53,569 bases of DNA. Source: a virus. The DNA is taken from positions 1-53,569 of the IMG/VR virus record IMGVR_UViG_3300045988_160359; one strand, written 5' to 3'. A program made the position numbers and the translations under genes. Position 1 is the stretch's first letter; the number at the start of each line of letters is the position of its first letter. Of the stretch, positions 23,633 to 53,569 are shown one piece after another. The notes under the pieces are model-generated. The model made no database searches. It was not told where the DNA came from and saw nothing but the letters and a program-made list of their open reading frames with translations.

Positions 23633-24063
23633 TAGACCATTCCTCCTTTGATGATACTATTATACCAGATTTCAGGATGCGTGTCTATTGACAGAATACA
23701 CAAATTTGCAAGAGATTTTTTGTGGAGTTTGTATTTATTGCGAATGAGGACCGCGACAGCCATTCGCGGTCCTGCGAGTTGAGGGGTTGTATTGGGGATG
23801 GTCTAGTCTTTCCGCGTGCGCCAAGCCCAAGAAGGTCTCGATAGTGTTCAGATTTTTTCTCAGATAAAAACCGACCGGGGGGGGTGGGTTTCGGGAAAAA
23901 ATTTTTTTTGCTTTTTATTTTTTTGTTTGGCTGGTACAAACTCTCACCAAAACTTTTTTCAATTCAAATAACGGTAAAAAGAATTACTTTTTAATTTTAT
24001 TTCTACCAAAAAACCAAATAGGAAAAAATAAAATTAATCCTATCAATGCTAATGCTTCAAGAA

Positions 24064-24207
24064 TCATTTCTTATTCTCCTTCTTAGGGCGACCACGTTTA
24101 GGGTTTTCGCCCCATACAATTTGATGAACTGCTTTAGTAGCATAATAATTAGCTTTTTTCTGCATTTTAGCAGCGAGGGCATTTCCAAAACTTTTATATT
24201 TAGGCAT
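24064..24207 (-). CDS. Small basic protein (47 aa)
   Basis: MPKYKSFGNALAAKMQKKANYYATKAVHQIVWGENPKRGRPKKENKK. Confidence 0.35.
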   Translation of the reverse strand: MPKYKSFGNALAAKMQKKANYYATKAVHQIVWGENPKRGRPKKENKK

Positions 24208-24208
24208 A

Positions 24209-24526
24209 TTACATTACTCCATTAATAGCATCAGTTAGTTTTTGAGGAATTTCAATTCCTAAATCATCTAATACTTCTTTAGCGCGTAAATATTCTATTC
24301 TACTACCATATCGTTTACTCACTCGCACTCCAACATAAACTTCACCATTATATTCAATAGTATAAAATTCCATACGGTCGCCAGGAGTAATACCATATTT
24401 TTGTCTTAAATTTTTAGGAAAAACAAGACGGCCTAAACTATCAACCTAATGGATAGAACCTTCATTATGAACTATTGCTTGGCCTTCTCGCATTACAATA
24501 TCAAAATAATTTTTTCCATCTTCCAT
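24209..24526 (-). CDS. AbrB/MazE/SpoVT-type swapped-hairpin DNA-binding protein, with 1 in-frame TAG
   Basis: VDSLGRLVFPKNLRQKYGITPGDRMEFY matches the AbrB N-domain consensus vDelGRvvIP.elR..lgi..gD.lei. A single TAG lies 27 codons after the ATG. Confidence 0.55.
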
Positions 24527-24530
24527 AAAA

Positions 24531-24824
24531 TCACTTCTCCTCCATTATATGACATTTTTCTCCAGAAGACTTAATAATATGCCAAATATACTCACCATCA
24601 TTAATAACTCCTAAATACTTGTCATTATTATTTACATATGTATCCAATTCCCAACCTGTGCCAACAGCATTAATTTGAAAATATTTTTTGGGTGCTTTTT
24701 CATCATAAGCTGCCCATACGCATGGATTATTATTTACATCTAATCCAGCAGATACAATATCAGTCAGATGGTCCATAATATGAGTTGACCCTGGAGTTTC
24801 AATTAAATATTTATAAATCTTCAT
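24531..24824 (-). CDS. Hypothetical protein (97 aa)
   Basis: Intact ORF. Confidence 0.45.
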   Translation of the reverse strand: MKIYKYLIETPGSTHIMDHLTDIVSAGLDVNNNPCVWAAYDEKAPKKYFQINAVGTGWELDTYVNNNDKYLGVINDGEYIWHIIKSSGEKCHIMEEK

Positions 24825-24825
24825 A

Positions 24826-25152
24826 TTACTCCTCTTTTAACACTTCTACCCAAACACGCACATCTCTATCTTCTGCATTCATTACTCGATTTTTATCATA
24901 TACAAAAATAGGGCAATGTAGTGGATAACAATTTAATCGCATAATTTTAATATCAATATTATCCACATAAATAATCATATTATCTTGAATATACGGCCAA
25001 TAATCTTGACCTTCACCCAATAGGATACAAGTATATCCTGCTTCAATTAATTGTTCAAGATTAATATATTGATTAAATGATACACCCATAAATAGAATAG
25101 TAGTGCCTCGTTTAAAATTTTTTAAAATATATTTAATCTATTTTTCAGTCAT
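24826..25152 (-). CDS. Hypothetical protein with 1 in-frame TAG near the N-terminus
   Basis: MTEK-TAG-IKYILKNFKRGTTILF continues into track ORF 24826..25089. Confidence 0.4.
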
Positions 25153-25334
25153 CACCATTCCACCCTTCCGGTAAAAATATATCTAAAATTCTTTGCAATA
25201 AATCACTCGCAGCAAATATTGGACCACCAATAAAAATATTAAACAAACAATTAATTTATTTTCACCAGCGCTTTGAATTGCATCAATATATTCAAACATT
25301 ACTAATGCTGAAATGATTATCCAAAAAATAACAA

Positions 25335-25733: not shown

Positions 25734-25754
25734 AAACTTCTCCTTTTATTTTTT

Positions 25755-25880
25755 ATTATAATAATAATACAAAAAATTTTTTTTATTGTCAAATTTTTTC
25801 CAATTAATAGTATCGTTTAAAAATTTTTTAAATGCATTTATTAAAATTTGACACCTGGAAAAATTTTTTGTATAATGAAG
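25755..25880. promoter_or_regulatory. Divergent promoter region between the minus-strand regulatory block and the plus-strand late module
   Basis: Plus strand TTGACA cctggaaaaattttttg TATAAT at ~25848-25876. Minus strand TTGACA-N17-TATTAT at ~25790-25760. Confidence 0.5.
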
Positions 25881-25904: not shown

Positions 25905-26966
25905 ATGATAAAATTAGATTATTCCTTACAAACTCCAGAAGAAAGAAATGAATTAGTCAAGAAAATATTAGAGGAAACCCCAGACCCCTCTCCTCGATAT
26001 TTAGAAATATTAGGGGACTATATCATTCTTTGTATGGAGAAACAAGAGAAAAAGGAGCGTAAATTATTAACTGATAATCGTATGGCAACAGTTAATAAAC
26101 GTGAAACATCTTTTGAAGGTCTTGTTTCCCAATTTGAGAATGGCGAAGATGGAATTTATAATTTAATTACTGAAAATAAAAATACAATATTTTAGCCTAA
26201 AATTACAATTACTAAAAAAGATATAGAAGAAATACCTCATTTAAAATAGTTAAGAGACGCCATTACTACTTGGGAAGCCAAATTACGAGTTAGCGAAGGA
26301 CGCGAGGCATTTATAATTAAACGTGCTATTATTGAAATGCGTAAAGATTAGTATGTTATTAAAAATGCAGTTCGTCGTCCAATTGTTATGACTAAAATTA
26401 CTCGTTCAAGAAATTTTATTCCATTAGAGGACACGACTTGCATTTTTGATGATGATGGTTATCCAATCCCGGATGGCGTTTCACTCTTAGACCCTAGAGT
26501 ATGTTCTGCAATTTTATGTAATTATTCTCGTTTAAAGCAAGATAGTTGGGGAGATTTTGAAAGAGATTTATGGTATATTATGGAAGATTTCGATAATTTA
26601 TGTACCATTGCTCTTAAAGATTATCCCTTATATGATAGAATAGTTGAATATAAAATTGATGGATTATAGAATATAGACATTCAAAAGAAAATTCAAGAGG
26701 AATTTAATATTACTCATAGTTTAGAATATATTTCTAGTTTATGGCGTAATAAAATTCCAAAATTAATCGCCTCTGCGGCTGAAGACCAATACCTATATGA
26801 TTATTATTTACATAAAGCAAAAGGTAAATATAAAAAATGTAGTCGCTGTGGGCAAATTAAATTAGCACATAATAAATATTTTAGCAAAAATAAAACTAGT
26901 AAAGATGGTTATTATAGTATTTGTAAAAAATGCCGTAATGCTAAAAACAAGGGCAAACAGTTATAA
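25905..26966 (+). CDS. Hypothetical protein with a C-terminal zinc ribbon (~353 aa, 4 in-frame TAG)
   Basis: Track fragments 25905..26195 and 26388..26669 are in one frame, joined through TAGs. The C-terminus reads CSRCGQIK...YYSICKKC. Confidence 0.5.
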
Positions 26967-27008: not shown

Positions 27009-28205
27009 ATGACTGTAGATAATGATAAAAAAGTATATTATTGCGAACGATGTAATAGAACTATGGGCGCTGACCAGTTTTATACATCTAATAATTTAGA
27101 AAAATATCCAAATGATGGAAAACTCCCTCAATGTAAAAAATGTATTACAATGCTTGTAGATAATTGGAATCCAGAAACTTATATGTGGATTCTACAAGAA
27201 ATTGATGTACCTTATGTTCCAGATGAGTGGAGTAAATTAATGGTAAAATATGGACAAGATAAATCTAAATTAACTGGTATGAGTATTTTAGGTAGATATT
27301 TGTCCAAAATGAAACTTAAACAATATAGAGATTATCGATGGAAAAATTCTGAGTTTTTATAGGAAGTGGCTAATAATAAATTAGAACAAACTATGAAACG
27401 ACAAGGCTATGATGCCCAGCAAATAGCAACAGCTATTGCTAAATCTACTGTCGCTATCCCAGAAGAAGAATTAAAACCTTACACTCCTGAATTACCAGAA
27501 CGTTTTAGAGATGGTGATGATTATTTTGATCAATAGAATGGTATTGAATATGATCCAGCAGATGACCTCGATTTAACAGAAGAAGATATTTTATATCTTC
27601 GTATGAAGTGGGGTAAAGCGTATAAACCCGAAGAATGGGTTAAACTAGAGCAACTCTATGAAGAAATGATGAGTTCTTATGATATCCGCGGCGCTGGCCA
27701 TATTGATACATTAAAATTAATTTGTAAGACATCCTTAAAAGCAAACTAGTTGATCGATATTGGTGATATCGAAGGTTTCCAAAAGATGAGCAAGGTTTAT
27801 GATAGTCTAATGAAATCAGGTAATTTCACCGCCGCTCAAAACAAAGCAGATACAGGAGAAGCATTTGATTCTATTGGAGAATTAGTGGCCATGTGTGAAA
27901 CTGAAGGATTTATTCCTCGGTATTATATGGAGGGACCAAAAGATAAAGTTGATGAAACTTTACAAGATTTAAAGAATTATACACACACATTAGTCACTGA
28001 AGAGATGAATCTAGGTAATCTCATTGAAGGGGCTATTAAGAAAATGCAAGAAGAAGAAAATAAAGAAGAAGACCAAGATATTGAAGAAGATTTAACGATG
28101 GAAGAAATCGATCATCTTAAAGATGAAGATTTAATTGAATATAATGATTTCCTTGAGGAAGAGTCTGAAATAGATGCTTAGACTTTAAGGAATTTAGAAG
28201 GATAA
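27009..28205 (+). CDS. Putative terminase small subunit (N-terminal CxxC...CxxC zinc ribbon, acidic C-terminus; 3 in-frame TAG)
   Basis: The call rests on its position directly upstream of terL. Track ORFs 27009..27362 and 27750..28181 share one frame. Confidence 0.35.
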
Positions 28206-28206: not shown

Positions 28207-29940
28207 ATGGCTTTATAGGATTTACTTGATTTATCTTAGAAGCGTAAAAAGATTGGAATTTCAGAGGACCGTCTTCGTGCGATTATACCAGAAGCAAGAT
28301 AGTACATAGCCTTTTGGAGAGAATATCCAGATATGTTTATCGACTTCATGGCAGGACCTGATGGCGGCCCTCAACATTTTAAACTCTATTTTTATTAGAG
28401 AATCTTTTTGCGCGCTGCGATGCGTCATAAATATATTTATGCTGTATTCCCTCGTGCTTATTCAAAATCTTTTTTATCAATGATGGTCTTAATGTGTCGT
28501 GCGATTCTATATCCTAGATGTAAATTATTTATTACTTCTGGTGGTAAAGAACAAGCGGCTGGAATTGTAAAAGAAAAAGTTCAAGAAATTTGTACTCTTA
28601 TTCCTGCATTTTAGAAAGAAATAGATTGGCGTCGTGGTTAGACACTTGAAGGTAAGGATTATGTTAAATATGTATTTAAAAATGGTTCATATTTTGATAA
28701 TATTGCTGCAAGAGAATCTTCTCGTGGTAAACGTCGCCATGGTGGTTTAATTGAAGAGTGTGTTGGCGTTGATGGTGATATTTTATCACAAGTTATTATT
28801 CCTACAATGAATATTTCTCGTATGTGTATGGATGGTACTACTCAACCTGATGAAACTCTTAATAAATCTCAAATTTATATTACTACTGCTGGATATAAAA
28901 ATACTTTCCCCTATGATAAATTAATCCAATTATTAGTTTGGGAGATTGTTAAACCTTAGCAATCTATTATTATGGGTGGTACTTATCGTATTCCTGTTTT
29001 AATGAAATTGTTAGATGCGAATTTTATTAAAGACTTAAAAATGGACGGAACGTTCAATGAAAGTTCATTTGACCGAGAGTATGAAAGTAAATGGTCTGGC
29101 ACAGTAGAAGATGCATTTTTTAATGCTGAAATATTTGATAGAAATAGAATATTAAATTAGCCTGAATATGAAGCATCCGGGCGTAATTCAAAATTAGCAT
29201 CTTATGTACTTGCTGTCGACGTTGGCCGTAAAGGATGCGATTCAGTTATTTGTGTATTTAAAGTAACTCCACAATCACAAGGTGGTTCAATTAAAAGTTT
29301 AGTAAATATATATACATTATCTGATGAACATTTTGAAGACCAAACTATTAAATTAAAAAAATTATATTATAAATATAATGCTGATAGAATTGTAATTGAT
29401 GGTAATGGTTTAGGAATTGGTTTAATTGATTATATGGTTAAGACATAGATTGACCCTGAAACTAATGAAATTTTCCCTGATTTTGGCGTTGTTAATGATG
29501 ATGATTTATTTTATAAAAAATATAAAACATCTAATACAGTATTAGATGCTATGTATATTATAAAAGCTAATGCGCCACTTAATACTGAAGCTCATGCGAT
29601 TGCCAAATCACAACTTGCTTCTGGAAAAGTGAAATTTTTAATTGATGAGCGCGTAGCAAAAAATAAACTTCTTGCTAAAAAGAAAGGTCAAACCATGACT
29701 CCAGAATAGAGGGCAGAAGAATTAAAACCATTTACATTAACTTCCATATTAAAAGAAGAAATGATGAATTTGCGTGAAGAAACTGAAGGAGTAAATATTA
29801 TCCTGAAGCAAGCAAATAAAAGTATCCGAAAAGATAAATTTTCTGCTTTTGAATATGGACTATATTATTTAAAATTAGAAGAAGATAAAAAGAAGAAACG
29901 TAAAAAGTTTAATGCTAAAGATTGGTGTTTCTTAAATTAA
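28207..29940 (+). CDS. terL: Terminase large subunit (~577 aa) with about 10 in-frame TAG codons
   Basis: Walker-A-like VFPRAYSKSFL. Nuclease-domain motifs LAVDVGRKGCDSV and IVIDGNGLGIGLIDYM. Track ORFs 28408.. and 28972.. lie in the same frame and are separated only by TAGs. Confidence 0.75.
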
Positions 29941-29950: not shown

Positions 29951-30307
29951 ATGAGAGCGTCTAGAGGCGAAATTAAAATTGAAGAGATTTTGCGACAAGC
30001 TGAATTACCATTTAAGATGGAGTATATTTTCCCAGATTTGAAGGCACCAAGCGGTAGACCTTTACGTTTCGATTTTGTCGTTTTTGATGATGATGGTAGA
30101 ATTGATTTTATTATTGAATATTAGGGTAAATAGCATTATGAGCCTAGTGCGAAATTTGGTGGTAAAAAAGGTTTATATCAACAACAATATAATGATAATC
30201 AAAAACGACGTTTTTGTGCTTTACATGATTTTAAATTAATAGAGATTCCTTATACAGATGAAAATCTTATTACATATGATTATATAATGCAATTAGCTGG
30301 ATATTAA
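29951..30307 (+). CDS. Small nuclease-like protein (possible PD-(D/E)xK/DUF559-like) between terL and portal, with 2 in-frame TAG
   Basis: RFDFVVFDDDGRIDFIIEY-x-GK-x-HY has an FDF...IExDG-H pattern. The RBS is GGAGGT. Confidence 0.4.
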
Positions 30308-30319: not shown

Positions 30320-31981
30320 TTGGATACTAAAGAATTATCACGTTAGGAAATCATCCACTCCAAAGGATTTAATATCAGCAATGGAACAAGTGATTATCGA
30401 ACTGCTGATCCAACAGAATATCGTAAGATAAAAGTTGGGGTTCAAACATTAGATGATGCTGTATTAGATTTAGGGTCATTCGCTCGATTATATCCTAATC
30501 GCCGCGGTCCATGTCGTATGGTTACTAAAAATGATGTATTACGAGCTATGATAAATCGTGATATTGTTGAAATGCGTAGAATTTCTAATTTATTTTATGA
30601 TATTAGCGGTATTTATGAGCGAGTATGTAATTATTTTGCTTATTTGTATAGATATGATTGGTATGTTGCTCCAGAGATTTTAGATGATACAGTAAAAGAT
30701 GAAAAAGTTTTAAAAGATTTTTCAAAGTTATTAAATTACTTAGATAATACTTATATTAAAAAAATCTGCGGTGATATTGCTCAAAGTATTATGAAAAATG
30801 GTTGTTATTATGGATATATAGTACAATCTGCAAATAGCTTAATGTTACAAGAATTACCTGCTAGTTATTGCCGCTCTAGATACTTTGTGGCTGGTATGCC
30901 AGCGATTGAGTTTGACATGCGGTTTTTTGATTAGTTTCCAGATCCTAATTATCGTATGCGCGTATTAAAATTATTCCCCGAAGAATTTTAGCGCGGATAT
31001 GTTTTATATAAGAAAGGAAAATTACTTCCTGATATTAAGGGAGATTATAGTGGAAGTTGGTATTTACTATCTCCAGAATTAAGTGTAAAATTTAATTTTA
31101 ATGGTAGTGATGCCCCGCCATTTATTAATTCTATTCCTGCTCTTATGGATTTAGATGCTGCTCAAGATTTAGACCGCAGAAAACAAATGTAGAAGTTGTT
31201 AAAAATTATTGTTCAAAAACTTCCAATGGATAAAAATGGCGATTTAATATTTGATATTGATGAATCTCGTGATATACATAATAATGCTGTTGCTATGTTA
31301 TCAAGAGCTATTGGTGTTGATGTTTTAACAACATTTACTGATGTTCAATCTATTGATTTATCAGATAAAAATACTACAACTACTACAGATGATTTAGCAA
31401 AAGTTGAACGTACTGTTTATAATAATTTAGGTATTTCTCAAAATCTATTTAATACTGATGGTAATTTATCATTAGAGAAGTCTATCCTTAATGATGAATC
31501 AACTGTTAGAAACTTGTTGTTGCAATTTAACATTTTTTTTGATAGAATAGTAAAGATGAAAGTTGCGAACAATAAGAAATATAGTTTTAAATTTTATATG
31601 CTTGAAACTACACAATATAATTATAAAGAAATGTCAAAATTATATAAAGAACAGACGCAACTTGGTTATTCTAAGATGCTACCTCAAATTGCTCTTGGTC
31701 ACTCTTAGAGTTTTATTTTAAATACTGCGGTATTTGAAAATGATGTGTTGAAATTAACTGAAATTATGATCCCACCATTAATGTCTTCTACTATGAGTAG
31801 TCAAGATGTTTTGGGTAATAAAGGTTCAAACAATTAGAATAAAACACAAAATAATTCAGGAAGTAGTAATCAATAGACTACTACAAAACAGACTACTGAA
31901 ACAAAATAGTCTGGGCGACCTGAAAAGGCTGATGATTAGAAAAGTGAAAAAACCATAAAAAATAAAGAGTCAATGAATTAA
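30320..31981 (+). CDS. Putative portal protein (~553 aa) with about 8 in-frame TAG codons
   Basis: TTG start 7 nt after AAGGAGGTG. Track ORFs 30518.. and 31196.. lie in one frame. The call rests on size and the terL-portal gene order. Confidence 0.5.
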
Positions 31982-31992: not shown

Positions 31993-33582
31993 ATGAAGCA
32001 TCAAAGTATTAAACTTGAAACGCCTTGTGAATTTATTAATATAACTCCTATTAATCCTTTGATTTCTAAATGCCAAATTAAAGTTTGCTACGTTGGGGAT
32101 AAACCAAATCGCAATCGAAGCATTATTTCTAAAGAAACTGCGAGGGAGATGGCTAATAGTCTCCCTGGCAGTCCTATTGTTGGTTTTTACAATAAATCTA
32201 ATGGAGATTTTGAGGAACACAATAGAATTATTGATATTTCAAATGGAAAATTTGAAATGAAAGACACTACTAAACCTTACGGTTTTGTAGATTTAGGTGC
32301 CAAGGTTTGGTTTTAGAAATTTTTAGATGATGGCGTTAATGAACATGAATATCTTATGACTGAAGGATATTTATGGACCGGCCAATATCCAGAATGTAAG
32401 CGCATCATTGAGCAAGGCAATAATCATTCTATGGAGCTCGATGAAGGCACTTTAGATGGAACTTGGACGAAAGATAATAATGGAAAGCCGTAGTTTTTCA
32501 TTATTAATGAAGCAATTATTTCTAAACTTTGTATTTTAGGAGAAGAGTGTGAACCTTGCTTCGAAGGCTCCTCTATTACAAAGTTTTCTCTTTCATTTGA
32601 TGATAGTTTTAAAAATGAACTATACTCAATGATGAATGAACTAAAAGAATTATTAAAAGAAGGAGGAGCAAAAGTGTTTAATAGATATGCCGTAGAAATC
32701 GGAGATTCTCTATGGAGTGCTTTATGGGAATATGTAAATAAAGCTTTCCCTGATGGCTCTAACAATTATTGCTCTAAATATCGTATTGAAGGTGTTTTTG
32801 AGGATAATAGTCAAAAATTTGCTATTCTTCAAGATCGCGGAGATATGAAATATTATCGTTTAAACTTTTCTTTAAATGATTCTGATGGTCTTGTTCCTGG
32901 TGAAGGTTTAATTGAAGTGACTAAATCTTATACTCCAGCAGCAGAGCCTCAGTTTGCTTTAGATGCGGTTGAAGCTTATGAAGCCGAATTTAAGAAAAAG
33001 CAAGAAGAAGAAGAAAATAAAAAGGCAAACGATGATAAGGGCGATAATTCTGGCGACCCTGAGAACAAAAAAGATGATGGTTCTTCTAAAAATAATGGTC
33101 AAAAGTCAGAAAATGAAGATGACGATCCTTCAGAAGATGATGAGGATAAAAAGAAAAAGAAAAAGTATTCCTTGGATGAAATTGAAGAATACGTTAGCTT
33201 AAAGGCAGAATATGAAGAATTGCAAAATAAATTTAGTTTATTAGAGGCTGAAAATAAAACTCTAAGTGAAACTAATACTTCTTTAACTGAGTTTAAAAAT
33301 AGTATTGAACGCAAGGATAAAGAAGCTATGATTCAATCATTCTATATGCTGTCTGATGATGATAAGAAAGATGTTATTGATAACATTGATAAGTATTCTG
33401 TTGATGATATTGAAGCAAAACTTTCTGTTATTTGTGTTCGCAACAAGGTTAATTTTAACCTTGATGATGATAATAATGATAAAGGCCCAACTACCTATAA
33501 TTTAAGCAATTTAGATGATGACAGAGATGCTGGAATGCCAGCTTGGGTCAAGGCTGTTCTAGAATCAGCCAATAAAAACTAA
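31993..33582 (+). CDS. Putative scaffold (or protease-scaffold) protein with an acidic low-complexity and coiled-coil C-terminal half, and 2 in-frame TAG
   Basis: 31993.. and 32629..33582 share one frame. It has a KKQEEEENKK...EDDEDKKKKKK stretch and heptad-like LQNKFSLLEAENKTL. It lies between the portal and the capsid genes. Confidence 0.4.
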
Positions 33583-33600: not shown

Positions 33601-34536
33601 ATGTTTAAGGATTTTTTAAATTCTCGTTTAGGCGTTGGTAAAAATCCACCTAAGTCACAGGCTAAGTATGTTGAGTTTGGTTATGGTCAGGTTGAGCCAA
33701 ATCACCTGTCTGCACAAAGAACCGCTCAAATTTATGCTCAGTTGCCTGCTAACAAGGATATTAATATTCTTGAAAATGGCCAATTTGTCAAGTATGATTA
33801 CGCTGCTAATGCCAATGGTATTGGTGAAGTGAATTTTACTGGCAAGGGCGAGTGGATGCTAGTTTATAATGAGATTAAGTTATATCGCGATCATCCTGAT
33901 GGAACTAAGCAGTGGGATTGCGAATTTGCTATGCTAAAGGACGACTATCAGGCTCGTATTTATTCTCCATACGATTGGGAGCATACCGAGGTTGAATATG
34001 GTGGACGTTTCTGGAATGGTGTTGATGAAACTGGTGCTGATCACAAGGTGCTTGAGCACACTGTTGCTTTAGACCAGGGTCTAAAGACTGTTACCATCGC
34101 TGGCGAAGTTTATGATGTTAAGGACAATAAGTTTACTTATAATGGTGTAGAGTATGAGATTGATCCTAAGACCAATCAGACTAAGACTCCTGTGCCTGTA
34201 AAGTATACTTATGATAAGGTTCTAACTGATGTTGCTGACATTTACGAAGAGCTGACTTGGACTAATGATCCATATAAGAAGCTTGGTGTTTATCATGAGA
34301 AGCGCATGACTCCAGGCACTGCAATGGTTCCTCGTGTCTTTAAAACTAATGTTGGTGATCATTATACTACTAATATGATTAATGAAGATAGTGTTTCTGT
34401 TGGTGACATTTTAGCTCCAGCAGCTGCTGACGGAATTCTTGTAAAAGATGAGAGTCAGGATATGAAGTGGCAGGTTGTTAAGGTATATACTATGCCTGAT
34501 GGACAACGTGGCGCTAAAATTCTACGTATTGCGTAA
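33601..34536 (+). CDS. Head protein (311 aa), TAG-free
   Basis: Intact ORF with a strong RBS AAGGAGG and higher GC than its neighbours. Confidence 0.45.
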   Translation: MFKDFLNSRLGVGKNPPKSQAKYVEFGYGQVEPNHLSAQRTAQIYAQLPANKDINILENGQFVKYDYAANANGIGEVNFTGKGEWMLVYNEIKLYRDHPDGTKQWDCEFAMLKDDYQARIYSPYDWEHTEVEYGGRFWNGVDETGADHKVLEHTVALDQGLKTVTIAGEVYDVKDNKFTYNGVEYEIDPKTNQTKTPVPVKYTYDKVLTDVADIYEELTWTNDPYKKLGVYHEKRMTPGTAMVPRVFKTNVGDHYTTNMINEDSVSVGDILAPAAADGILVKDESQDMKWQVVKVYTMPDGQRGAKILRIA

Positions 34537-34553: not shown

Positions 34554-35660
34554 ATGTTAGATAGAAACAATTTAGTTGCTTTAATGAAGACTGTTGCTAA
34601 GGCTGATCCTTCTTCTCCTGTGGCTTACAGTTATAATGGTCAGAACCTTTCTTATGAGGCTCTGAACGATACTTTACGTAATGAGATGAATGAGCTAGCT
34701 GGTACTAATGCTCTATATCGTGAAAATAAAAATTTAATTTTCTCAATGATTGAGGAGACTTTGGATGAAGTTCTTCCTAAGAAGGTTTCTCAATCTTATG
34801 AGCAGTTTGCTGAAGTTAAGCAGTTTGCTCAGGGTGATAAGCCTATTTTCCGTCGTCCTCTAAATACACGCGCACGTGCTAAGCAGTTTGTGACTCGTGT
34901 TGGACTGGCTGGTATCTATGAAGTCTTCAAGCTGGGACCTGCTGAGAACGAGAGCTTTGAGGTTCGTACTTCTGCTATCGGCGGAGCGGCTCAAATCGGC
35001 TTCGAAGAGTTCTTAGATGGTCGTGTTGATTTTGCTGAAGTTACCAAGATTATTATGGATGGTATGGATGAACTGATTTACAAGGAAGTTGCTTTGGCTT
35101 TGAAATCTTCTATTAATCAGCTACCTCCTGCTAACCGTGTTGCTGCAGCTGGTTTTGATGAAGGTGCTATGGATCGTTTGATTACCATTGCTTCTGCTTA
35201 TGGTACTCCTACTATTTATTGTACTTATGAATTTGCTGTTCGTATGATTCCTAATGAAGCTTGGCGTTATACTGAAGCTATGAAGACTGAGCTGTGGAAT
35301 ACTGGTCGTTTGGCTACCTATAAGGGGACCAAGGTTGTTATTCTAGAGCAGGGCTTCGAAGATGAAAGTAATACCCGTAAGGTTATTGATCCTGGTTATG
35401 CATGGATTATTCCTACTGGTGTTGATGGCAAGCCTGTAAAGATTGCTTTCGAGGGCGGAACTATTGTTGATGAATTCAGCAATTATGATCGTTCTCGTGA
35501 GATTCAGGTTTATAAGAAGGTCGGCGTTGGTTGTATGTTGGCTAACAACATTTGCTCTTATGTTGATACTTCCTTAATGGGTCAAATGTATACTTGGAAT
35601 TATGATGGCATTACTGGTAAGGTTGTTACCTATGATGGCCGTAAGAGTGGTACTATTTGA
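34554..35660 (+). CDS. Putative major capsid protein (368 aa), TAG-free
   Basis: Size, position after the scaffold gene, strong RBS GAAAGGAGAG, GC-richer codon usage and a very strong terminator immediately downstream. Confidence 0.55.
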   Translation: MLDRNNLVALMKTVAKADPSSPVAYSYNGQNLSYEALNDTLRNEMNELAGTNALYRENKNLIFSMIEETLDEVLPKKVSQSYEQFAEVKQFAQGDKPIFRRPLNTRARAKQFVTRVGLAGIYEVFKLGPAENESFEVRTSAIGGAAQIGFEEFLDGRVDFAEVTKIIMDGMDELIYKEVALALKSSINQLPPANRVAAAGFDEGAMDRLITIASAYGTPTIYCTYEFAVRMIPNEAWRYTEAMKTELWNTGRLATYKGTKVVILEQGFEDESNTRKVIDPGYAWIIPTGVDGKPVKIAFEGGTIVDEFSNYDRSREIQVYKKVGVGCMLANNICSYVDTSLMGQMYTWNYDGITGKVVTYDGRKSGTI

Positions 35661-36945: not shown

Positions 36946-36973
36946 GTATCATACAGATATTTCTGATGAAGTC

Positions 36974-37234
36974 ATGGAGAAAAATATAGTAAGATTAACT
37001 AATCAACTGTGGAAATTAATCCCTATGAGAGAAAATGAAGAAGATTGGGATAAACAATTAAATACAGTTATTATTGAAGTTGCGGGCTTAAATGAAATTT
37101 TTATTTAGGACCCGCGATTTTTATAGTTGCTTAGTAAATTAGAAGGGCTAAATGTTTTAAATGATATTGAGTTCTCAATTTATAGAAAAACTGTATTTGA
37201 ATGTATTAGTTTATTATAGGAGATTAAAAAGTAA
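36974..37234 (+). CDS. Small protein (~86 aa, 3 in-frame TAG)
   Basis: MEKNIVRLTNQLWKLIPM.... The read-through frame ends in a TAATG overlap with the next gene. Confidence 0.3.
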
Positions 37235-38385: not shown

Positions 38386-38410
38386 TAATGAGTAAAAGGA
38401 GATTGAAAAC

Positions 38411-42693: not shown

Positions 42694-45600
42694 ATGGCAA
42701 AACAACTAAATGTCGCATTAGATTTTACTGCAAATACTACTCAAGCGAAATAGCAGATTTAGGAATTGCAGTAGTTATTAACTAAAGTAGCATATAGTAC
42801 TGACTTAGGTATTAATCCCAGTCAAATGAAAGAAGCTTCTGCTGCGGCTAAAGAATTAGCTATTCATTTAAATGAAGCGTATAATTAGAAAACTGGTAAT
42901 TATGATTTAAGTAAATTAAATGCTAGTTTAGCTAAATCAAAAACTAATGTGACTGAATTATCTACCAGCTTACTCCAAGCGGGAACAACTGGACAACAAG
43001 CATTTATAAAATTAGCTCAATCAATAGCGGCGGCTGATTAGCCAATGATTACATTAAATGCTCGTTTATAGGATTTTTTGACTACTGTTAAGAATACAGT
43101 TAAATGGCAAATTTCTTCAAGTATGATTCATGGGGTAATGGGAGCTTTGCAAGGAGCTTATCGTTATGCTTAGAATTTAAACAGTTCATTAAATGATATT
43201 CGAATTGTTACTGGTCATAATATTGACTATATGGATAAATTTGCTGATAAAGCAAATAAAGCAGCAAAGGCATTAAGCACTTCTACATTAAATTATACTG
43301 ACGCTTCTTTGATTTACTATCAACAGGGTTTGTCAGACAAAGAAGTAGAAGATAGAACTGCTGTTACTATTAAAATGGCTAATGCTGCTGGTGAAAGCGC
43401 AGATAAAATATCAGATCAATTAACTGCTGTTTGGAATAACTTCTATGATGGGTCACAATCATTAGAATATTATGCCGATGTTATGACTGCATTAGGTGCA
43501 GCGACAGCTTCCAGCACAGATGAAATTGCGGCTGGATTAGAAAAATTTGCGGCCGTGTCTAACACAGTAGGCTTAAGTTATGAGTATGCTACTTCTGCTT
43601 TAGCAACTGTAACAGCAACAACTCGTCAATCTGCTGATGTAGTTGGTACTGCATTTAAAACATTATTTGCTCGTATTCAAGATTTAGAATTAGGGAAAAC
43701 TCTTGAAGATGGTACTACATTAGGAAAATATTCTCAAGCTCTTGATACTGTTGGCATTTCTATTAAAACAACAGATGGCGGATTGCGAGAAATGGATGAT
43801 ATCCTTAGTGATTTAGGTGAAAAATGGAATTCATTTGATGTTGAAGGTAATCCATTAATTTCTAAAGATGCTAAAGTAGCATTAGCTCAAACTGTTGCTG
43901 GTGTTCGTCAATATACGCAATTAATGGCATTAATGGATAATTGGGATTTTATGAAAGAAAATCTCGAAACTGCTCGTAATGCTACTGGTACATTAACTGA
44001 ACAATAGAAAATTTATGAAGAATCTTGGTAGGCTGCTAATAAACGTTTAAAAGCTTCTTTTGAATCTTTATATACTGATTTAATTGATGATAAATTTTTT
44101 ATTAAATTTACAGATTTTTTATCTGATATGGTTGATGGTGTTGATTCTTTTATTGATAAAATTGGTGGAATTAAACCTTTATTATTAGGATTTTTATCAT
44201 TAATTGGTTAGACATTAAGTTCTAAAATTTAGCCGGCTTTAGATAATGCAATAAATAATATTCAAATTTTAGTAGGTGGAGCAGATAAAGTTTATGCTAA
44301 AATATCTAAAGAAACTTCTGATAATATTAAACTATAGTTAGAAGCAAGAACTAATTTTACTCCAGCTCAAGAATAGGAATTAAAAAATTCTTAGGAATTA
44401 TTAGGAGTAAAAAATAAATTAGCAACAGTGTCTGAAAATTTATCTGTTAGTGAAAAAAGATATTATGAAAATGAAATTCAATTTATTGAAAAACAATAGT
44501 AGGAAACAGTAAAATTAATTAAATTACGAGAACAATTAAATAAAGATACTAATCCTATTGATTTAAATGCTCCTAATCAAATTTATGATTATGGTACTAG
44601 TTATTTACAGAAGTTAAAAGCTAATAAAGATAAAGTTTAGTAGTTATATCGTAATAATCCATCTGAAAGTAATTAGGCAGATTTAGTCGCTGCTAGAAAT
44701 GATTTAGCTTTTTTTTAGAATGATAAATTAGATATTCAGGAACAGGCGGCATCTCAGTTAGCACAAACAGTTGAAAAATTAACAAATGCTTATAAAACTT
44801 TTATTGAAGTTGGACATGAAACAAATGAAACTTTACTATCAGGAAATGATTTATACTCTTTAACAATTGAAGGACTTAAAAAATTAGGAACTTAGTATAC
44901 TAAATTAAATGGTGAAATTGATTTTGAAACGGTTCGAACTTCTATTGATATGCTTATTGGTCCAGTAGATGAAGTCACAAAATCTTCAAAAGATTTTCAA
45001 AATGCTTTAGAAGCTATTGAAAGTGCATTAGATGGAGGAAAGCCGAAAGAAGTAAGTTAGGCTTTTAAGCAGTTAGCAGAAGTTCTAAAAAATACTACTA
45101 TTGAAGGAAAAAATGCGGCTAATGCTTTAGAACAAATGGGTCGTTCAACAAGCAAATCAATGAAATAGGCTAAAGGTGATATTTAGGCGCATGGTAAAGC
45201 ATTAAAATAGTGGGGATAGGCTACTAAAGAAGCAAAAGAGGCACAAGAAGGACTTAATCAAGCAGTTATTAATTTTAAACCAGTTCATAAAATACCTTTC
45301 ACTTAGAGCGTAATATCATTGGCTTCTGCTTGTGGTTCTGCTGCGATGACATTGCAATCATTTAATTCTATGATGCAAACATTATCTGATCCTGATATTT
45401 CTGGATGGGAAAAATTTACATCTGTTTTATTTAGTATTTCTATGATTGTCCCTGGGGTGTCTAGTGTTTTACGAGGATTAAGTACTACTAATGCCTTTTT
45501 ACAACAATAGTCTTAGAAACAATTTCTTACACTTTCTTTAGAAAATGTAGCGATAGAGGCTAATACAATAATATTAACTTAGAATCAAAAAAAGAAAATA

Positions 45601-48600
45601 GATAATATATTAGCTAGTAAAAAATTAAATGATGCTTTTAAAAAGAATGCTATACAAGCAGTTTTAGCTGCAGGAGGAGTGGTTACTGAAACTACAGCGT
45701 TGCAAGCTGAAGCTATTGTAGCAGGAAAGGCGACGGTAACAACTAATGCTTTTTCTACAGCTTTAAAAGGTTTATGGTTAAATATTGCTCCAGTTTTAGC
45801 CACTATTTGGCCTTTAATTGTAGCTTTAGGAGCTTTAGTAGCGGCTTGGACGATATATAACAATGCTACTGGGGCAGCAGCTGAAAACGCGGAATAGAAT
45901 AATAAAAATTTAGAAGAAACTAAAACTGCTTTAGATGATGTAAATAGTAGATTAAATACATTAAATAGTACTTTATCTGGGCTAAATGATAAACGTAAAA
46001 ATATTGACAATCTCACTTATGGAACTATAGAATGGCGAGATGCTGTTAATGAGTTAAATGATGAAGTTGATGACTTAATTGAAAAATATGGTTTAATAAA
46101 AGGATAGGACTGGGATATTGATGCTCAAGGGCGTAAGTATATTACAGACACTGGCGCGGAGACTATGCGTACTTCAATGGATGAAGAACGTTCTAATTTA
46201 TTATCAGCAAAAGCTGCTCAATAGAAATTTAAAGATAAATATGAATACGATTAGAGAAAAAGAGAAATTATTTCTGATTATACTAAACGCGGATAGACCC
46301 ATTATGATAATGATGTAGAATAGATTACTTCTAAAGATCTAGACACTATTATTAATGCTAAATTACGTAATCCAAACTTAGAAATTGATTCTGATGCATT
46401 AAAAGATTTAGGCTTAGATTAGAGTGTTATTGATTTAATTGATAATAATACTGAATTACAAGATGCTATTAAAGAATTGACTATATAGGCACAACGAATT
46501 GCTGACACAGAAACTAATGATATGTATAATAAAATGGTTTCTGAAGGGATTTTAGAAGATTTAAAAGAGGCAGGAGTCAGTGATGAATATGCCTCTGATA
46601 TTGCTTATAAAATGGCTGAAGATGCAGCCCGTAATTCTAATGCTATAGATTATACTGACTAGTCTGCTACCGCTTTTAATGTTTTAAATAATTCAAATGA
46701 AAATATTCAAGAGTTTTTAAAAGAAAGAGGATATACTTATAAAGACAATAATTTTTGGGGTAATCTATCTAAATTATAGAATGATAAAACTATTGAAGTA
46801 TATACAGATGAAGATTAGAAAGAGACTAAAAATATTTCTGTTTCAGAATTACGAGCTTGGTTGGAAAATAAATTAGCAGCTGAAGATACTGTGGCTAATA
46901 TTGATGATTATGTAGGAATAGAAGCCGATAGTAAAACAACTTGGGAAAACGCTTTTAAAGCAAAAGAAACTTGGAATAAAAATCAATCAACTGTAAATGA
47001 ATTTGAACAAATAAATCAACAGGGGACTCCAAACGAAGATTCTTTTGATAATACAGAAGATTATCAAGCGGCTTATAATAATTATCAAGATTAGTTAAAA
47101 GAAAAAGCTCAAGCTATGTCAGATATGTTAAAATAGAATTCTGAAGAGTATGCTTCTATGTTTAATATAACTAAAGAAGGTTTCGAAGAATGGATTAGTG
47201 ATAGTGACAATATTATTGAACATTATGATTTAATTAAGAAAGCAGTTGAAGGAGACGCTGAAGCTGTAAATGAATTACGAAAATTAACTGGTCTTAATAT
47301 TGGTACTATTAAAGATATTTAGGATGCTTGGAATGATAACAGCAAAGAACTAGATAAATATATTGAAAAATTAGAAAAAAATCAAGATTTAACAGAAGCT
47401 GAATATGAATCTTTTGGAGATTTTTTAAATGCTAATTCTGATAGTTTTGCTTCTTTAGCAGCAGTGAGTGAAGATACATTTGATAAAATGTTATCTCATA
47501 ATAAAGATTTTATTAAAAAATCTGGTCCATTGATTCCTAAAATGATGAAAGGCGATACTAAAGCTGTTCAACAATTTAGAGTAGAAGCATAGCGTCAAAT
47601 TGTTTTAGATGTTAATAACACTAAAGCCCGTTCAGCAATGGCTCAATTAGAGGACTCTGCTGATGCTGCGGCTGGAACAGTTGAATCAGATGTTCAAAAT
47701 GCTTTTGATTATATTTCTAATTATATAGAAAACAATCCGATTGAAGTCGGAGCAGAAGTCAATGATGCTGGATTTATTGATGCTTGTAATAAAATAATTG
47801 CCGCTAGTGGATGGACATCTGAACAAGCACAAAAAGAATTTGCTAAAATGGGATTTAATTTAGAATTAAATCCAGTCACTCCTTAGGTTACTAAAAAACA
47901 TTATGAAGTATTAGAAGCTTCAGATGTCCCTGATGCTGTTGATTCAAACCATCATAAAAAAGGTGACCCTGAGGTAGTGTCTTATGAAGCTACCGATACT
48001 ATTGAATACCCCGCAGCAGTTAAGGCTGTAACTGGTGGCGGCTTAGAAATGGGCGGTGAAGTCACTGGAGGCACAAAACCTTCTGGAGCCACTGGAGGAA
48101 ATGGTAGCGGTGGTAGTAGTGGAGGTGGCGGTGGAAGCTCATATACTCCTCCTCCTCCAAAAGAATATAAAGATGAAATTGAGCGTTATCATGTAATTAA
48201 ACAAAAAATTGAAGATTTAGAAGAAGTAATGGAACATTTAGCAAAAGCTAAAGAGCGGGCATTTGGCACTTCTAAATTAGAATTAATGGATCAAGAAATT
48301 GAGAAATATGATGAAATGATTGATTTATAGAATCAATATCTTGATGAAATTAATAAATATTGGGATGAAGATAGAGCTTTAATTGCATCTTATGGCGCTG
48401 AATTTGATGAAACTGGTGCTATTACTAATTATGATGAAATTATGAAGCGCCAGATTGATAAATATAATTCATCTATTGGTAGAAATGAAGAGGCTGATGA
48501 TGCGGCTGAAGATGCTTATGATGATTTTATTAAAGCTTTAGAATAGTATGAAGAAACTAATAATTTACGCCAAGACGAATTGGAAAAATTATATGATTTA

Positions 48601-50991
48601 CAAACTGAATTAGCTGATGTAATTTTTGAAAAGACTTAGTATAAAATTGAAATTAAGATTGCTGTTAAAGATGATGAATTAGAATACCTTGATTATTTAT
48701 TAAGTAAAATTGAAGATGATGCTTATTCGGCGGCTGAGGCTATAGCTTTAATTGGTGATAAAACTTAGAATACTCTTGATAAAATTACTACTTATCAAAA
48801 AGGATTAATAGAGTTATTAAATAATCATGGTATTGATTCAATAGAAGAATTAGAGGGAATGTCTGAAGCTGATTTAAAAGCTAAAGGATTTACTGCTAAA
48901 GAAATTGAGCAATTAAGAGACTGGCGTTCAGAATTATTATCTAGTAATCAAGAATTACTTGAAATGCGTAATACAATTCAAGAAAAAGTATTAGATAGTT
49001 TCAATCAATTTAGTGAAGATATCGAGCATCAAATTGAATTATTTGATCATTATCAAAATATTTTAGAAGGTGTTAAAGATATTACATCATTATTAGGAAT
49101 GTAGTTGGGAGAACAGTCTAAAATAGTAATTCGCAATTTAAATCGTTCATTAATGAATAATAGTATTAATAACTTAGCTGGAACTAAAAAAGAATTAGAA
49201 GCATTGAAATAGATGCGCGCAGACGCTTAGGCTGAGCGTGATAAAGTGGCAGCTAACGGAGATGAACAAGCTATTAAGAAATGGGATAAAACCTTACAAG
49301 AAATTGATGATAAAATTAATGGCGCAGAAGAAAGCTTTTTAGATAGTTGGCAAGAAGCATTATAGAGAGCAAAAGACATCTTTAATGAAGAAATGGATAA
49401 TATTATTCAAGAATTTGAAAAAGGAATTGCTCCTATTCAAGGCACCATTGATGCATTACAAGAAGCCATTGACCAAGCTAATGAAATTGATGCACAATAT
49501 TTAAGTGATACTGATAAAACTTATGAATTAAATAAATTAAGACGTTAGATTGAAGGTTCTATAGAAGATACTGATATTATCGCCCATAAACAAGCATTGA
49601 ATAAATTGCAAGATGAGTTAAATAAAAAATTAAAAGATGGTTCTTAGATTAGTGAATATGATTTGAAAATTTTACAATCTAAATATGAATTAGAATTAGC
49701 ACGTCAAAAATTAGAAGATACTCAAAATAATAGTGAAGTTGTACGCTTGACTCGTGATAATAATGGTAATTGGGGATATGTATATAGTGCCGATGAAGAT
49801 AAAATTGCTGAAGCCGAATAGGCTTATGAAGATAAATTAAATGCTTACCAAAAAGCAAATGAAGAATATTTAAAAACTCTTGAAAGCAATATTCTCCAAG
49901 TGTAGGCGGACTATAAAGAAAAACTTAAAGAAATAGAGTTAGGATTGGCTGACGGAGAAATAACAAAAGAAGAGGCTGAAGCTAGAATTGCTAATTTGAA
50001 CGATTGGTATTTAAATAAGATGCAATATCTTGAAGGCGAATATAAAAAGTTATTTGAAAATAGTCAAGACGCAACAGAAAAATTCACTTCATATTATTAG
50101 ACTAATACTGATAATATTAAAAATACATTTGAGAAAACTACTTTAGCTATTAAAGGTGGATATGAATCATTAGACGCAATGTTCAAACGATTCTGGGAAA
50201 GTCATGACAATGTATTAGATAATTCAATGAAACTATTAGATGATCTTAGTAAAAAATAGGATGAAATAAATCAAACTGCTGGTATTGAAGGTAGTTTTGC
50301 TAATGAGGCCTCTGGTTGGTCTATTAAGATTACTGGTGATTCTGATAAGGCATTAGCTGATATGGATGGGATAGTTAAGAACGCTACCGATTCCTTCAAA
50401 GACGTTATTGAAGCAGCAGGTAAATGGGAAAAAATTTATAGTGAAAAAATTAATAGTGCCATTGATCGGAATGAAGCTCTCGTGGTTAGTCTTAATAAAA
50501 TGGTTGCATTATTATCTGGAATAGATAGCATCGATTATAGTAAGTATGGAAAGAAAATAGATTCTCGCGCTACCGCGACAGATAATAATATAATTAGCAC
50601 TCAACATAATTCTAAAAGCTTTAACAGTACTGATTATATTGCAGAACAATCTTTCCCCTTAACTTATGATATATTTGATAGATTAGATATGAGTAAATAG
50701 ATAGATGAATGGATGTAGAGTAATGAATTAACAATTGATACTGCATTAATTGATAGCTTAGATGTATCAAGTATTTTACAAAGTATAGGATTAAATGTTT
50801 AGACTATTGTAAATTATTTATCTAATTTAACTCCTTCTTCTCTTGGTATTGATAGAATTGCACAAGAATTGATGCAGCAAGTCTCTATTAATGCTGATTT
50901 CCCGAATGTGACTGATAGTAATGAAATTATGGAAGCATTTGAAATGATGGAGAATGAAGCAAGTCAATACGCTAGTCGAAAGACTATTTAA
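42694..50991 (+). CDS. Tail tape measure protein, ~2,765 codons, containing many tens of in-frame TAG codons
   Basis: Nine track ORFs all lie in one frame: 43231, 45319, 45679, 46861, 47638, 47977, 48859, 50362 and more. It has a TP901-type TMP core (AGLEKFAAVSNTVGLSYEYATSALA), hydrophobic TM stretches and a G/S-rich linker. Only TAG interrupts the frame. Confidence 0.8.
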
Positions 50992-50994
50992 TTT

Positions 50995-51035
50995 AAATGG
51001 CGAGGTTTAATTACCTCGCCATTTTTTTATTGGTC
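50995..51035 (+). terminator. Rho-independent terminator after the tape measure gene
   Basis: ggcgaggtttaattacctcgcc followed by atttttttat. Confidence 0.6.
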
Positions 51036-51103
51036 AAATATAAATAATAAAATAAGATTTTTTCTTAAAAATTATTAGAATATGAGAAAAAGGAGAGCAA
51101 ATT

Positions 51104-53569
51104 ATGTCTAATGAATTAAATGAAAAAATATTCCGATCAGTAGACACAATTGTATCTGCTCGATTATAGAATTTACCATTTGACTAGACAATAATCGGTG
51201 TGGTAGAAAGTGTACCTGAAAAATCAGAAGCGCAAAAATACATAGTAAATTATAAAGGTGCAAAATTAACAGTATTTGTAAATGATACTGATAAAAAATA
51301 TGCAATAAATGAAGAAGTATATGTATTAATTCCTGGTGGAGATTTTTCAGCTAAAAAACTTATTACAGGTAGAGTTATAAGTGATTATTAGGCTGATGAA
51401 AAAAGAAATGAAAATAATTATCTGCCATCATTTAGCCATTGGGTTTCGCCTGAGCAAGAATATAGTTTAATTGTTGAAAATAGTAATTCAGAATCAACAA
51501 AATTAATTTATGAAGTTGCATTAAATGATTCTCCTATTATTGGTTATACAACCTTATAGTTAGCTTATAATATTGCCGCGGATTTATACAATAATGAAAA
51601 AATTGTTGATTAGGGAATATATGGAGTAAGAGTTATTTTAACAGCAATTGATTAGAATACTGTTAATACTAATGATAATAATTTAAAACAAGACTTAATA
51701 TATAATATGACTTGTGATAATATGTTATTAATGAATAAATATCGTTCAGGTGGATATACGGCACAAAATTTCAATATTACGATTACTGATAAAATTATTA
51801 CTAATATAAAAATTATTGCATACCACAATGGAAAATTTTATGACAGTGATAATAATAAAATTACCCAAAAAGATGATTTATATGTTAAATTAAAAAATTT
51901 CACATTAACTACTGGGTATTTAAAAAAGGATTTAGACAATGACAGTAATAGTGATATTGCAATTTATTTTTATTCTCTTAATGGTATATAGTATAAAAGT
52001 AATACTAATGAATTAGATGTTACAACAGCATTTCGTCCAGTAAATAAAGTTACTGGTACTATTATTACCTATCCTATTACTAATATTTAGTTATATAGAT
52101 ATAATGACAGCAATACTATCAATACGTCAGGAGTTGGAATAGGCTGGGATTTGATTAATAATGTAATTTAGAAAAATACTACATTAAGTTTTAAATTGCA
52201 ATCTGGCGATTAGATTACAAAAGCGATTTATTGTGTTAAAATTAGTTTTAATGTTAATAATATACCAAATGTTTATGCCGTTTCAAATAAATTAACATTT
52301 ACTAATTAGACTTCTAATGAAAATATTTCATTATTAGCGGGAATTACATTAACTCCTAATAACAATAGTAATGTTTTCTACTCTTATGGACAAGATAATT
52401 AGTTATTAGCTCGATCTGATAGCGAAAAACTATAGAGAATTGCTGTATCATTTTCGTCAAAAGATACAACTGGAAATACTACATTAGTCCCAGGAGTCAA
52501 TTTAACTTATTATTTACCAGTAAAGAATACTATGATTTTACCTGTTGATTCTAGACGAGAAATTAATAAAAAAAATCAATAGGAGTATTATACATTTAAT
52601 AAAAAATTAACAAGCGATGATTTACAATCAAATATTTTTTACATCCCATTTAAAATTGCTAATTTATATAATCCATTATTTAAAAATAATACAATTATTT
52701 GTGATGTAGAAATTAATGATTAGATTTATACTCAAAACTTAGATTTATTGTTCGGTGTTAGTGGTTCTTCAGGTGCTAATTATGTTTTATAGTTAGAATT
52801 ATAGGATAGTGCTTCTAATTAGAAGGTAAAATCTATTTTTTATAAAGCAACTAATTAGCCCGTGTATAAAATTTAGTATTATTTATATGATTATGCTTGG
52901 AATTCAATTCCTAATAATAATTTAAAAAATATTTCATTTACATGGTATAATTCAGCATTAAACAATAATTCTAAAATAAAATTAGATAATAAAACGGGAG
53001 TTATTACTTTATTACAAGATTTAGTCGCAGAAGATGGAATTGCTTCTAAATTAATAGTTTAGATGACTGGCACTTATCAAGGAATTGAATTAAAAGGATA
53101 TATCACAATACCAGTAAGTTTTAATCCTTTATGTGCTTGTATTGATGGCTGTTCTATTATTACATATGATATAACAGGCAAAAAACCAATTTATGAAAAA
53201 ACTCCTTATAGATTATATCAATATTCTGATTCGTTAGATTTATAGATTATAGATGATATAGAGTGGAATTTAATAGATGAAAGTGGATTATTAAAATTTA
53301 ATTCTATTGATCCTAGTGGGCCTAACTCTAAAATTAAAATTATTACTCCACCAACAATTTATTCCCCACAAAATAAATCTTCATATATAACGGCGAGTCT
53401 AAATAGTTCAATTGTTTGGATATAGCCAATTTTAATGATAAATAATACTTATCCAACAGCCATGTGGAATGATATGCGTGGAAATGAAATTAATTTTAAT
53501 AACAATGAACTTCAATTATTTTCTGCAACTGTTGGACAATTAGATGCTAAACAAGCAAATGGAGTATTA
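51104..53569 (+). CDS. Distal tail / tail fibre protein, partial (runs off the window end), with many in-frame TAG
   Basis: Track ORFs 51200, 51707 and 53063 share the frame of the ATG at 51104. The sequence is Asn/Thr/Ser-rich, which is typical of fibre proteins. Confidence 0.5.

Follow-up and report, generated by a model that had tools for sequence, protein, structure and literature searches.

Recoding of the amber codon TAG to glutamine (genetic code 15) has been described in a number of gut phages, including members of the crAss-like, Lak and 'gemstone' clades (10.1101/2021.08.26.457843). Surveys indicate that the hosts of such phages use the standard code, and in the published model a suppressor is needed before full-length late proteins can be produced (10.1101/2021.08.26.457843). 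Peptides with glutamine at TAG positions have been proven by proteomics in crAss-like phages only (PMC9523058). A further example is phAss-1, assigned by NCBI to a 'Caudoviricetes code 15 clade', which has TAG within 41 open reading frames (ORFs) and three genes for tRNAs with the anticodon CUA, tRNA(CUA) (PMC10607447). Here, a similar use of TAG is described in the IMG/VR virus record IMGVR_UViG_3300045988_160359, of which positions 1 to 53,569 were analysed (53,569 bp, GC 36%; hereafter 'the window'). The window represents about a quarter of a human gut siphovirus of ~195-200 kb with a structural module like that of Bacillus phage SPbeta, and TAG is a sense codon in its AT-rich genes.

No ORF in the window exceeds 380 aa when the standard code is applied. 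Once TAG is dropped from the set of stops, frames of 2,771, 828, 583, 557 and 530 codons appear, every one of them on the plus strand and to the right of 25.9 kb; dropping TGA or TAA instead yields no comparable long frames, and neither was accepted as the sense codon. With TAG read through, 19 contiguous plus strand genes encoding proteins of up to 2,765 aa occupy positions 25,905 to 53,569, where the window ends, most of them preceded by an AAGGAGG-type Shine-Dalgarno sequence. Together these genes contain 142 in-frame TAG codons among 8,930 but not one in-frame TAA or TGA, and the 18 that are complete terminate with TAA (17 genes) or TGA (one gene). The tape measure gene (42,694-50,991) alone has 63 TAG in 2,765 codons, and is free of TAA and TGA along its whole length. 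As its off-frames hold 133 and 452 TAA and TGA codons, a frame this long cannot have stayed open by chance (probability ~1e-59, computed at the lower off-frame stop density).

Conserved genes are likewise full-length only when TAG is read through. The match of the portal protein to its PHROG profile spans the TAG positions from residue 8 to 485 of 487 (E = 5e-79), three PHROG profiles together cover residues 11-577 of the large terminase (TerL), again across TAG positions, and the core of the tape measure protein is matched in the same way (E = 3e-43). An earlier note on this DNA, made from the sequence alone, had claimed that the late genes are interrupted by TAG only, that the tape measure fragments belong to a single frame and that the TerL and tape measure motifs run on across TAG. 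All of this was borne out, both by the comparison of alternative stop sets and by the profile searches of the read-through proteins, which it had suggested as checks. Read with the standard code, approximately half of the window looks like gene debris; read with code 15, it yields a complete virion module.

The earlier note had placed the recoding in the late structural module, where it does hold, but this proved too narrow, since nearly all of the AT-rich genes found contain TAG. Sense TAG codons are also present in low-GC genes outside the virion module, at 3,323-3,766, 4,328-4,807, 24,209-24,544 and 24,826-25,299, such that they track AT-rich genes rather than the structural module alone. 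One of these is the source of the helix-turn-helix motif TAS-TAG-IAELL, previously cited as part of the interval 24,060-53,569: the motif is real, scoring 31.2 bits against Pfam HTH_7 with glutamine at the TAG, but lies at ~3,614, in a plus strand gene (3,323-3,766) with five TAG codons in a low-GC island. The same island contains a second plus strand gene with two TAG (4,328-4,807), while the other two genes, an AbrB/MazE-type gene with one TAG (24,209-24,544) and a gene with two (24,826-25,299), lie on the minus strand by the divergence point.

The amino acid represented by TAG was examined by aligning 16 late genes with their orthologues from 80 IMG/VR loci, which allowed 55 TAG sites of the window to be compared. 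Orthologues most often had TAG itself at these positions (1,127 codons), followed by CAA (1,067 codons, at 49 sites), GAA (225), CAG (218) and then a long tail of others. CAA differs from TAG by two mutations yet is its commonest partner, which points to synonymous codons and not to ease of mutation. Among the 80 loci, 19 are nearly devoid of TAG; they form three groups (L041-L053, L072-L075 and L083-L084) with capsids 81-87% identical to that of the window. From each group, one representative was studied (L049, L083 and L072, with capsid identities of 87, 83 and 82%, respectively): none has an in-frame TAG in the 16 aligned virion genes, and in all three the portal gene terminates with TAG. 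At the window's TAG sites, these representatives encode glutamine in 31 of 53, 30 of 52 and 34 of 53 cases, respectively (58-64%), which is equivalent to the 62% conservation of ordinary glutamines in the same alignments. The log-likelihood of the identity of TAG was -268 for glutamine and -509 for the runner-up, glutamate. Furthermore, among strains with capsid identity of at least 98.6%, CAA or CAG alternates with TAG at nine of the 10 sites polymorphic for TAG. The share of glutamine at TAG columns, the likelihoods and the polymorphism between strains together indicate that TAG is glutamine in the AT-rich genes (genetic code 15), the assignment that had been thought to fit the helix-turn-helix position.

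As had been noted from the sequence, no tRNA is detectable within the window by either ARAGORN or Rfam. A leftward walk through an IMG/VR contig and then ENA contigs passes through early genes, an AT-rich recoded island and, from ~30 kb, an array of ~28 tRNAs. Approximately 43 kb left of the window, this array includes, in near-identical genomes, a tRNA with the anticodon CUA (TCCGGCTTGGAGTAATGGTAGCCCGCCTGACTCTAAATCAGGTCGCCTCGGTTCGAATCCGAGAGCCGGTGCCA), in agreement with the first of two expectations, machinery elsewhere in the genome or a supply by the host. Four independent assemblies, two of which are contigs of 199,522 and 195,452 bp, have this gene in identical form; its score against the Rfam tRNA model is 55 bits, and a consensus host-type promoter (TTGACA-N18-TATAAT) lies upstream of it. 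The predicted tRNA folds into a normal cloverleaf whose variable loop is short; its first acceptor pair is mismatched (U1.U72) and its discriminator is G73. In 10 further metagenome loci from close relatives, this tRNA is found downstream of the same neighbour gene, either unchanged or differing by one base; all of the loci obtained around this site belong to recoded lineages. The connection to the window runs through the 197,697 bp contig IMGVR_UViG_3300045988_140174, which shares 97-98% identity with the window across 16 kb and 97% with the tRNA region of locus L137. Beside the suppressor, Rfam detected only tRNAs, with no theta or HDV-like ribozymes or members of other families.

A second type of CUA tRNA, 91-92 nt in length with a long variable arm, replaces or joins the 72-75 nt type in relatives (L146, L147, L157-L160 and phAss-1, L016 12,442-12,532), including one of the 10 close-relative loci just mentioned and several more distant relatives in which it is present instead of the short type; U1.U72 and G73 are common to both. 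At the same position in every array read there is also a tRNA-like gene called 'Phe(aaa)' (L122 13,282-13,354), which, having a 4 bp anticodon stem and the loop CCAAAAG, is probably no ordinary tRNA.

Within the recoded genes, glutamine is encoded by 212 CAA, 22 CAG and 142 TAG codons, and GC content at third codon positions (GC3) is 0.17. TAG therefore has largely replaced CAG, and makes up 38% of glutamine codons in the TAG-bearing late genes, its share falling with the GC content of the gene (Spearman rho -0.78). TAGs are evenly spread along genes; adenine is somewhat enriched as the following base, though not significantly (p = 0.08), and no relationship was found between the phage tRNA set, which is nearly complete, and the codon preference of late genes. 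Four late genes are exceptions, as the earlier note had pointed out: those starting at 33,601, 34,554, 35,749 and 39,769 have no TAG alongside 37 CAA and CAG codons, compared with 142 TAG against 234 in the remaining late genes (Fisher p = 8e-8), so their lack of TAG is non-random. These genes retain CAG, have a GC content (0.36-0.41) above that of other late genes, and their orthologues in recoded relatives have a median TAG count of zero.

The early genes are of a different character. The 23 short minus strand genes analysed, five at 87-2,758 and 18 in a block at 5,771-22,691, have GC contents of 0.39-0.56 and a GC3 of 0.56, contain no in-frame TAG in 3,291 codons and stop only at TAA or TGA. 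Between 6,178 and 22,678, a span of ~16 kb within this block, there are 29 perfect TTGACA-N16-18-TATAAT sites, mostly on the minus strand at about one per small gene and mostly with an extended -10; promoter-like sites in the early block number 98, compared with 37 +/- 5.5 in shuffled sequences. The absence of TAG, the choice of stops and the consensus promoters imply that the early block reads the same in both codes and that host polymerase suffices for its transcription.

Across the genome, the split in base composition is marked, with early genes at 45-55% GC (GC3 up to 0.83), virion genes at 25-33% and an accessory island at 17-29%. As TAG-free sister lineages share the low GC content of the virion module, this split is independent of recoding. 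The GC-rich left half of the window was also considered as host DNA or a chimeric join; this was rejected on the basis of its short, phage-type genes and the recurrence of the same junctions in many assemblies. Perfect plus strand promoters at 8,903, 10,204, 11,949, 14,373, 19,043 and 20,173 oppose the minus strand early promoters, and in several cases a conserved GC hairpin (CGGGCGCC...GGCGCCCG in form) follows. Such sites may indicate antisense transcription or structured 5' leaders. To the right of the early block, an ORF-poor stretch at 22,717-23,521, adjoining the AbrB/MazE-type gene, has seven copies of a 31 nt motif built on the palindrome ATTGTTAA..TTAACAAT, which could be an operator or origin-like array.

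These observations can be combined into a model in which UAG in AT-rich genes would be decoded as glutamine by the phage-encoded suppressor tRNA, UAA and UGA remaining as the only stops. Early genes, TAG-free and under perfect host-type promoters, read the same in both codes, whereas full-length recoded proteins could be produced only once the suppressor had accumulated, which would delay the synthesis of virion proteins. The major capsid protein, tail tube protein and two other late genes may lack TAG because a codon read by a suppressor is decoded less efficiently than an ordinary one. Taken as a whole, comprising a code 15 phage, decoding by a phage tRNA(CUA), code-neutral early genes and delayed virion synthesis, this is considered highly probable; the use of TAG as a glutamine codon and the presence of tRNA(CUA) in near-identical genomes are results, while the timing function and the reason for TAG avoidance are inferred.

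Several observations weigh against it. The IMG/VR locus L122 ends ~1.5 kb short of the suppressor site, hence the suppressor is shown for the lineage and not on the window's own molecule. By crude identity, the overall sequence of the tRNA is not clearly closest to tRNA-Gln, and its predicted charging with glutamine derives from the codon alignments and the features of its acceptor end. The search beyond the window that had been proposed found the tRNA, but neither a release factor nor an aminoacyl-tRNA synthetase gene was seen in the ~100 kb read. With respect to timing, a perfect host-type promoter at 25,848 precedes the first recoded gene, for which the PHROG label 'sigma factor' is unconfirmed, there being no match in Pfam or among PDB sequences.

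Genes that look broken up when read with the standard code might also be expected if the TAGs were sequencing or assembly errors, or the genes pseudogenes, but this is hardly credible: the identical capsid and layout recur in at least 80 assembly blocks and ~200 IMG/VR contigs, TAG is conserved at 54 of the 55 sites, and TAA and TGA never interrupt the frames. Recurrence across dozens of independent assemblies excludes the assembly errors that the earlier note had named as a potential refutation. It is very improbable that TAG is a sense codon for something other than glutamine, whether pyrrolysine, tyrosine, serine or leucine through a type II suppressor, or glutamate, lysine or tryptophan. 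Such a reading could draw on the 'Pyl' label that ARAGORN gives by default to any CUA tRNA, on the long variable arms of the 91-92 nt CUA tRNAs in phAss-1 and some relatives, and on the failure of crude identity to place the suppressor clearly nearest tRNA-Gln. Yet glutamine at TAG columns matches ordinary glutamine conservation, the next residue is 240 log-likelihood units worse and the commonest partner codon is two mutations away; moreover, the clade's tRNA has a normal cloverleaf fold in which the variable loop is short, and the gene calls of the loci read include no pyl genes, at odds with a pyrrolysine system. There is a slim chance that suppression is instead supplied by the host, through an amber suppressor or its own use of code 15, making the phage tRNA(CUA) irrelevant; in its favour, the window itself has no tRNA. 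Against this, a tRNA(CUA) with its own promoter lies past the same neighbour gene in every close-relative locus that reaches the site, and the standard code is what published surveys find in the hosts of such phages (10.1101/2021.08.26.457843). The complete absence of in-frame TAG from early genes also argues against host suppression, as such avoidance would be necessary only were TAG still a stop at the onset of infection.

A more serious contender, although not the favoured one, is that recoding has no timing function, TAG having arisen through neutral C-to-T drift from CAG in AT-rich genes after capture of a suppressor, with GC-rich genes escaping. This explains part of the pattern equally well: the share of TAG falls with gene GC content, CAG is nearly absent where TAG is common, and TAGs are evenly placed along genes. 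Sister lineages are equally low in GC without having TAG, which suggests that AT-richness came first. By contrast, the four late genes without TAG among their 37 glutamine codons, despite a GC content of only 0.36-0.41, and the early genes without any in 3,291 codons, suggest that TAG is selected against in genes that must be translated early or with high efficiency. The neutral and timing explanations are not mutually exclusive.

The phage belongs to an abundant clade. Public assemblies contain the exact capsid protein (34,554-35,660) and the same gene layout in 80 blocks or more, and IMG/VR has ~200 related contigs; contigs of the clade are up to 195-200 kb long and circularly permuted in differing ways, indicating a genome of ~197 kb. 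Public gene calls on these contigs already read through TAG, and Pfam identifies among them YonG_N, YonD_N, YonB, YomW, YomV (weakly), YomU_Tube and PhageMin_Tail, collinear with a long tape measure gene. No relative at the nucleotide level was found among GenBank phages by megablast with a 7.4 kb query, and the complete GenBank genome with the most similar capsid protein is that of phAss-1 (OQ749652), at 50% identity. Membership of the proposed genus Phassvirus, within which genomes share 80-86% nucleotide identity and synteny with phAss-1, was therefore rejected, the capsid being only 50% identical and megablast giving no match; a protein search with the NrdD of phAss-1 returned only relatives of phAss-1. 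The phage is without a cultured relative and is distantly related to phAss-1.

Lineages with capsids 77-90% identical to that of the window differ in code, some having heavily recoded virion modules and others no in-frame TAG. Recoded and TAG-free lineages are interleaved within the clade, judging from the one representative examined per TAG-free group. The tRNA array of the phage also contains a conserved 50 aa ORF (L122 12,172-12,324, ~32 kb left of the window, and in L139, L141, L142 and L143), which through the motif KGKGAYTRKQKH matches Pfam ArfA, the alternative ribosome-rescue factor A, with E = 2e-5 and 24.3 bits, against a cutoff of 25.5. No literature linking phage ArfA to recoding was found. 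A broader reading would join these elements: the clade would constitute a natural on/off system for code 15, its genomes written in two dialects, one of host-like, GC-rich, TAG-free early genes under consensus host promoters and the other a gene set of 17-33% GC in which TAG means glutamine, served by the phage's array of ~28 tRNAs. The ArfA-like protein might then rescue ribosomes that pass the TAG stops of host or early messages after the suppressor is expressed. Taken jointly, these propositions are judged unlikely.

The recoded array begins at 25,905-26,966 with a gene encoding a 353 aa protein and containing four TAG, the first at codon 96, directly downstream of the perfect TTGACA-N-TATAAT site (25,848-25,876, end approximate, plus strand). 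The AlphaFold model of this protein is poor (pLDDT 64) and Foldseek found nothing below E = 0.03; public metagenome proteins include 6,893 homologues of it (E < 1e-5), and a Pfam domain is present in none of these. All of the following genes are on the same strand. A YonG_N-family protein (27,009-28,205, 398 aa, four TAG) precedes TerL (28,207-29,940, 577 aa, 10 TAG), which matches phrog_15503, phrog_24618 and the TerL families phrog_5909 and phrog_38, but no PDB sequence. An HNH/homing-endonuclease-like gene (29,951-30,307, 118 aa, two TAG) separates it from the portal gene (30,518-31,981, 487 aa, eight TAG), which stops at TAA where standard-code sister lineages stop at TAG, and this is followed by a YonD_N-family protein (31,993-33,582, 529 aa, two TAG). 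Next are three of the TAG-free genes: one at 33,601-34,536 (311 aa, GC 0.40), the major capsid protein (Pfam YonB, 34,554-35,660, 368 aa), which stops at TGA, and one at 35,749-36,336 (195 aa). Five head/tail-joining genes contain three (36,358-36,945), three (36,935-37,234), seven (37,234-38,388), two (YomW, 38,411-39,013) and eight (YomV, 39,013-39,741) TAG codons, and lead to the fourth TAG-free gene, encoding the tail tube protein (Pfam YomU_Tube, 39,769-40,848, 359 aa). A hypervariable gene (40,923-41,987, 354 aa, two TAG) lies beyond it, varying strongly among otherwise near-identical strains, from 305 to 363 aa, with a BLAST orthologue in four of 80 loci. After a further gene (42,054-42,578, 174 aa, one TAG) and the tape measure gene, a tail-fibre-like gene (51,104-53,569, >822 aa, 23 TAG) continues past the window end.

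Other features were observed elsewhere in the clade. An 11 kb island of 17-29% GC on the 'early' strand (L110 728-5,045; L121 ~6,000-17,800) has up to 12 in-frame TAG per gene and encodes proteins that, from motifs identified by eye, are radical-SAM-like, GT8-like glycosyltransferase-like and FkbM-like methyltransferase-like, as well as a 209 aa protein rich in cysteine, tyrosine and glycine. Just past the tRNA array (L139 17,348-20,432, L140 and L141), a gene for a 509 aa DUF2828/DUF7788 protein is accompanied by one for an 830 aa protein matching MVP_shoulder and Vault_3, of the major vault protein. A 487 aa gene of moderate GC content (L109 3,291-4,754 and L110 3-362) stops at a TAG that is followed by 33 protein-like codons, in frame, to a TAA; this TAG may be sense, or give two C-terminal forms depending on suppression.

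The candidate suppressor can be compared with the supE-type tRNA-Gln(CUA) of Escherichia coli. The two are alike in the anticodon CUA, a weak first acceptor pair, here U1.U72, and the discriminator G73; in tRNA-Gln the first acceptor pair, one of its identity elements, is U1-A72. The tRNA described here differs in being dedicated and phage-borne, with its charging predicted. Many Firmicutes lack glutaminyl-tRNA synthetase (GlnRS), and produce Gln-tRNA by transamidation.

The order and families of the head and tail genes are those of the structural module of Bacillus phage SPbeta, but GenBank relatives of this module have no evident TAG recoding, and the capsids of cultured SPbeta-like phages have only 22-41% similarity to that of this phage. 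With phAss-1, it shares a human gut origin, virion genes containing TAG, a tape measure gene of great length, a large tRNA array that includes tRNA(CUA) and, within the ~100 kb read here, the absence of aminoacyl-tRNA synthetase genes; it differs in lacking nucleotide-level similarity, in its genome of ~197 kb as opposed to 136 kb and in having one suppressor found (72-74 nt), whereas phAss-1 has three, two of them beside nrdD. As in the code 15 crAss-like, Lak and gemstone phages, in-frame TAG is concentrated in structural genes, the phage itself encodes tRNA(CUA), genes stop preferentially at TAA, GC content is low where genes are recoded, and close relatives are standard-code and TAG-depleted; the phage could be placed in none of the clades named for that group. 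Unlike those phages, the virion module is that of an SPbeta-like siphovirus, no release factor or synthetase gene accompanies the suppressor in the sequence read, and the division in GC content between early (45-55%) and recoded (17-33%) genes is very sharp. Late-gene TAG recoding, phage suppressors, preference for TAA, low GC content and TAG-depleted relatives are all known already (10.1101/2021.08.26.457843, PMC9523058, PMC10607447), and the known workings of phage recoding are left unchanged. To the amber-recoded phages is added a large and very common clade of SPbeta-like gut siphoviruses, in which recoded and TAG-free lineages exist side by side, such that the gain, loss and cost of recoding become answerable from existing data.

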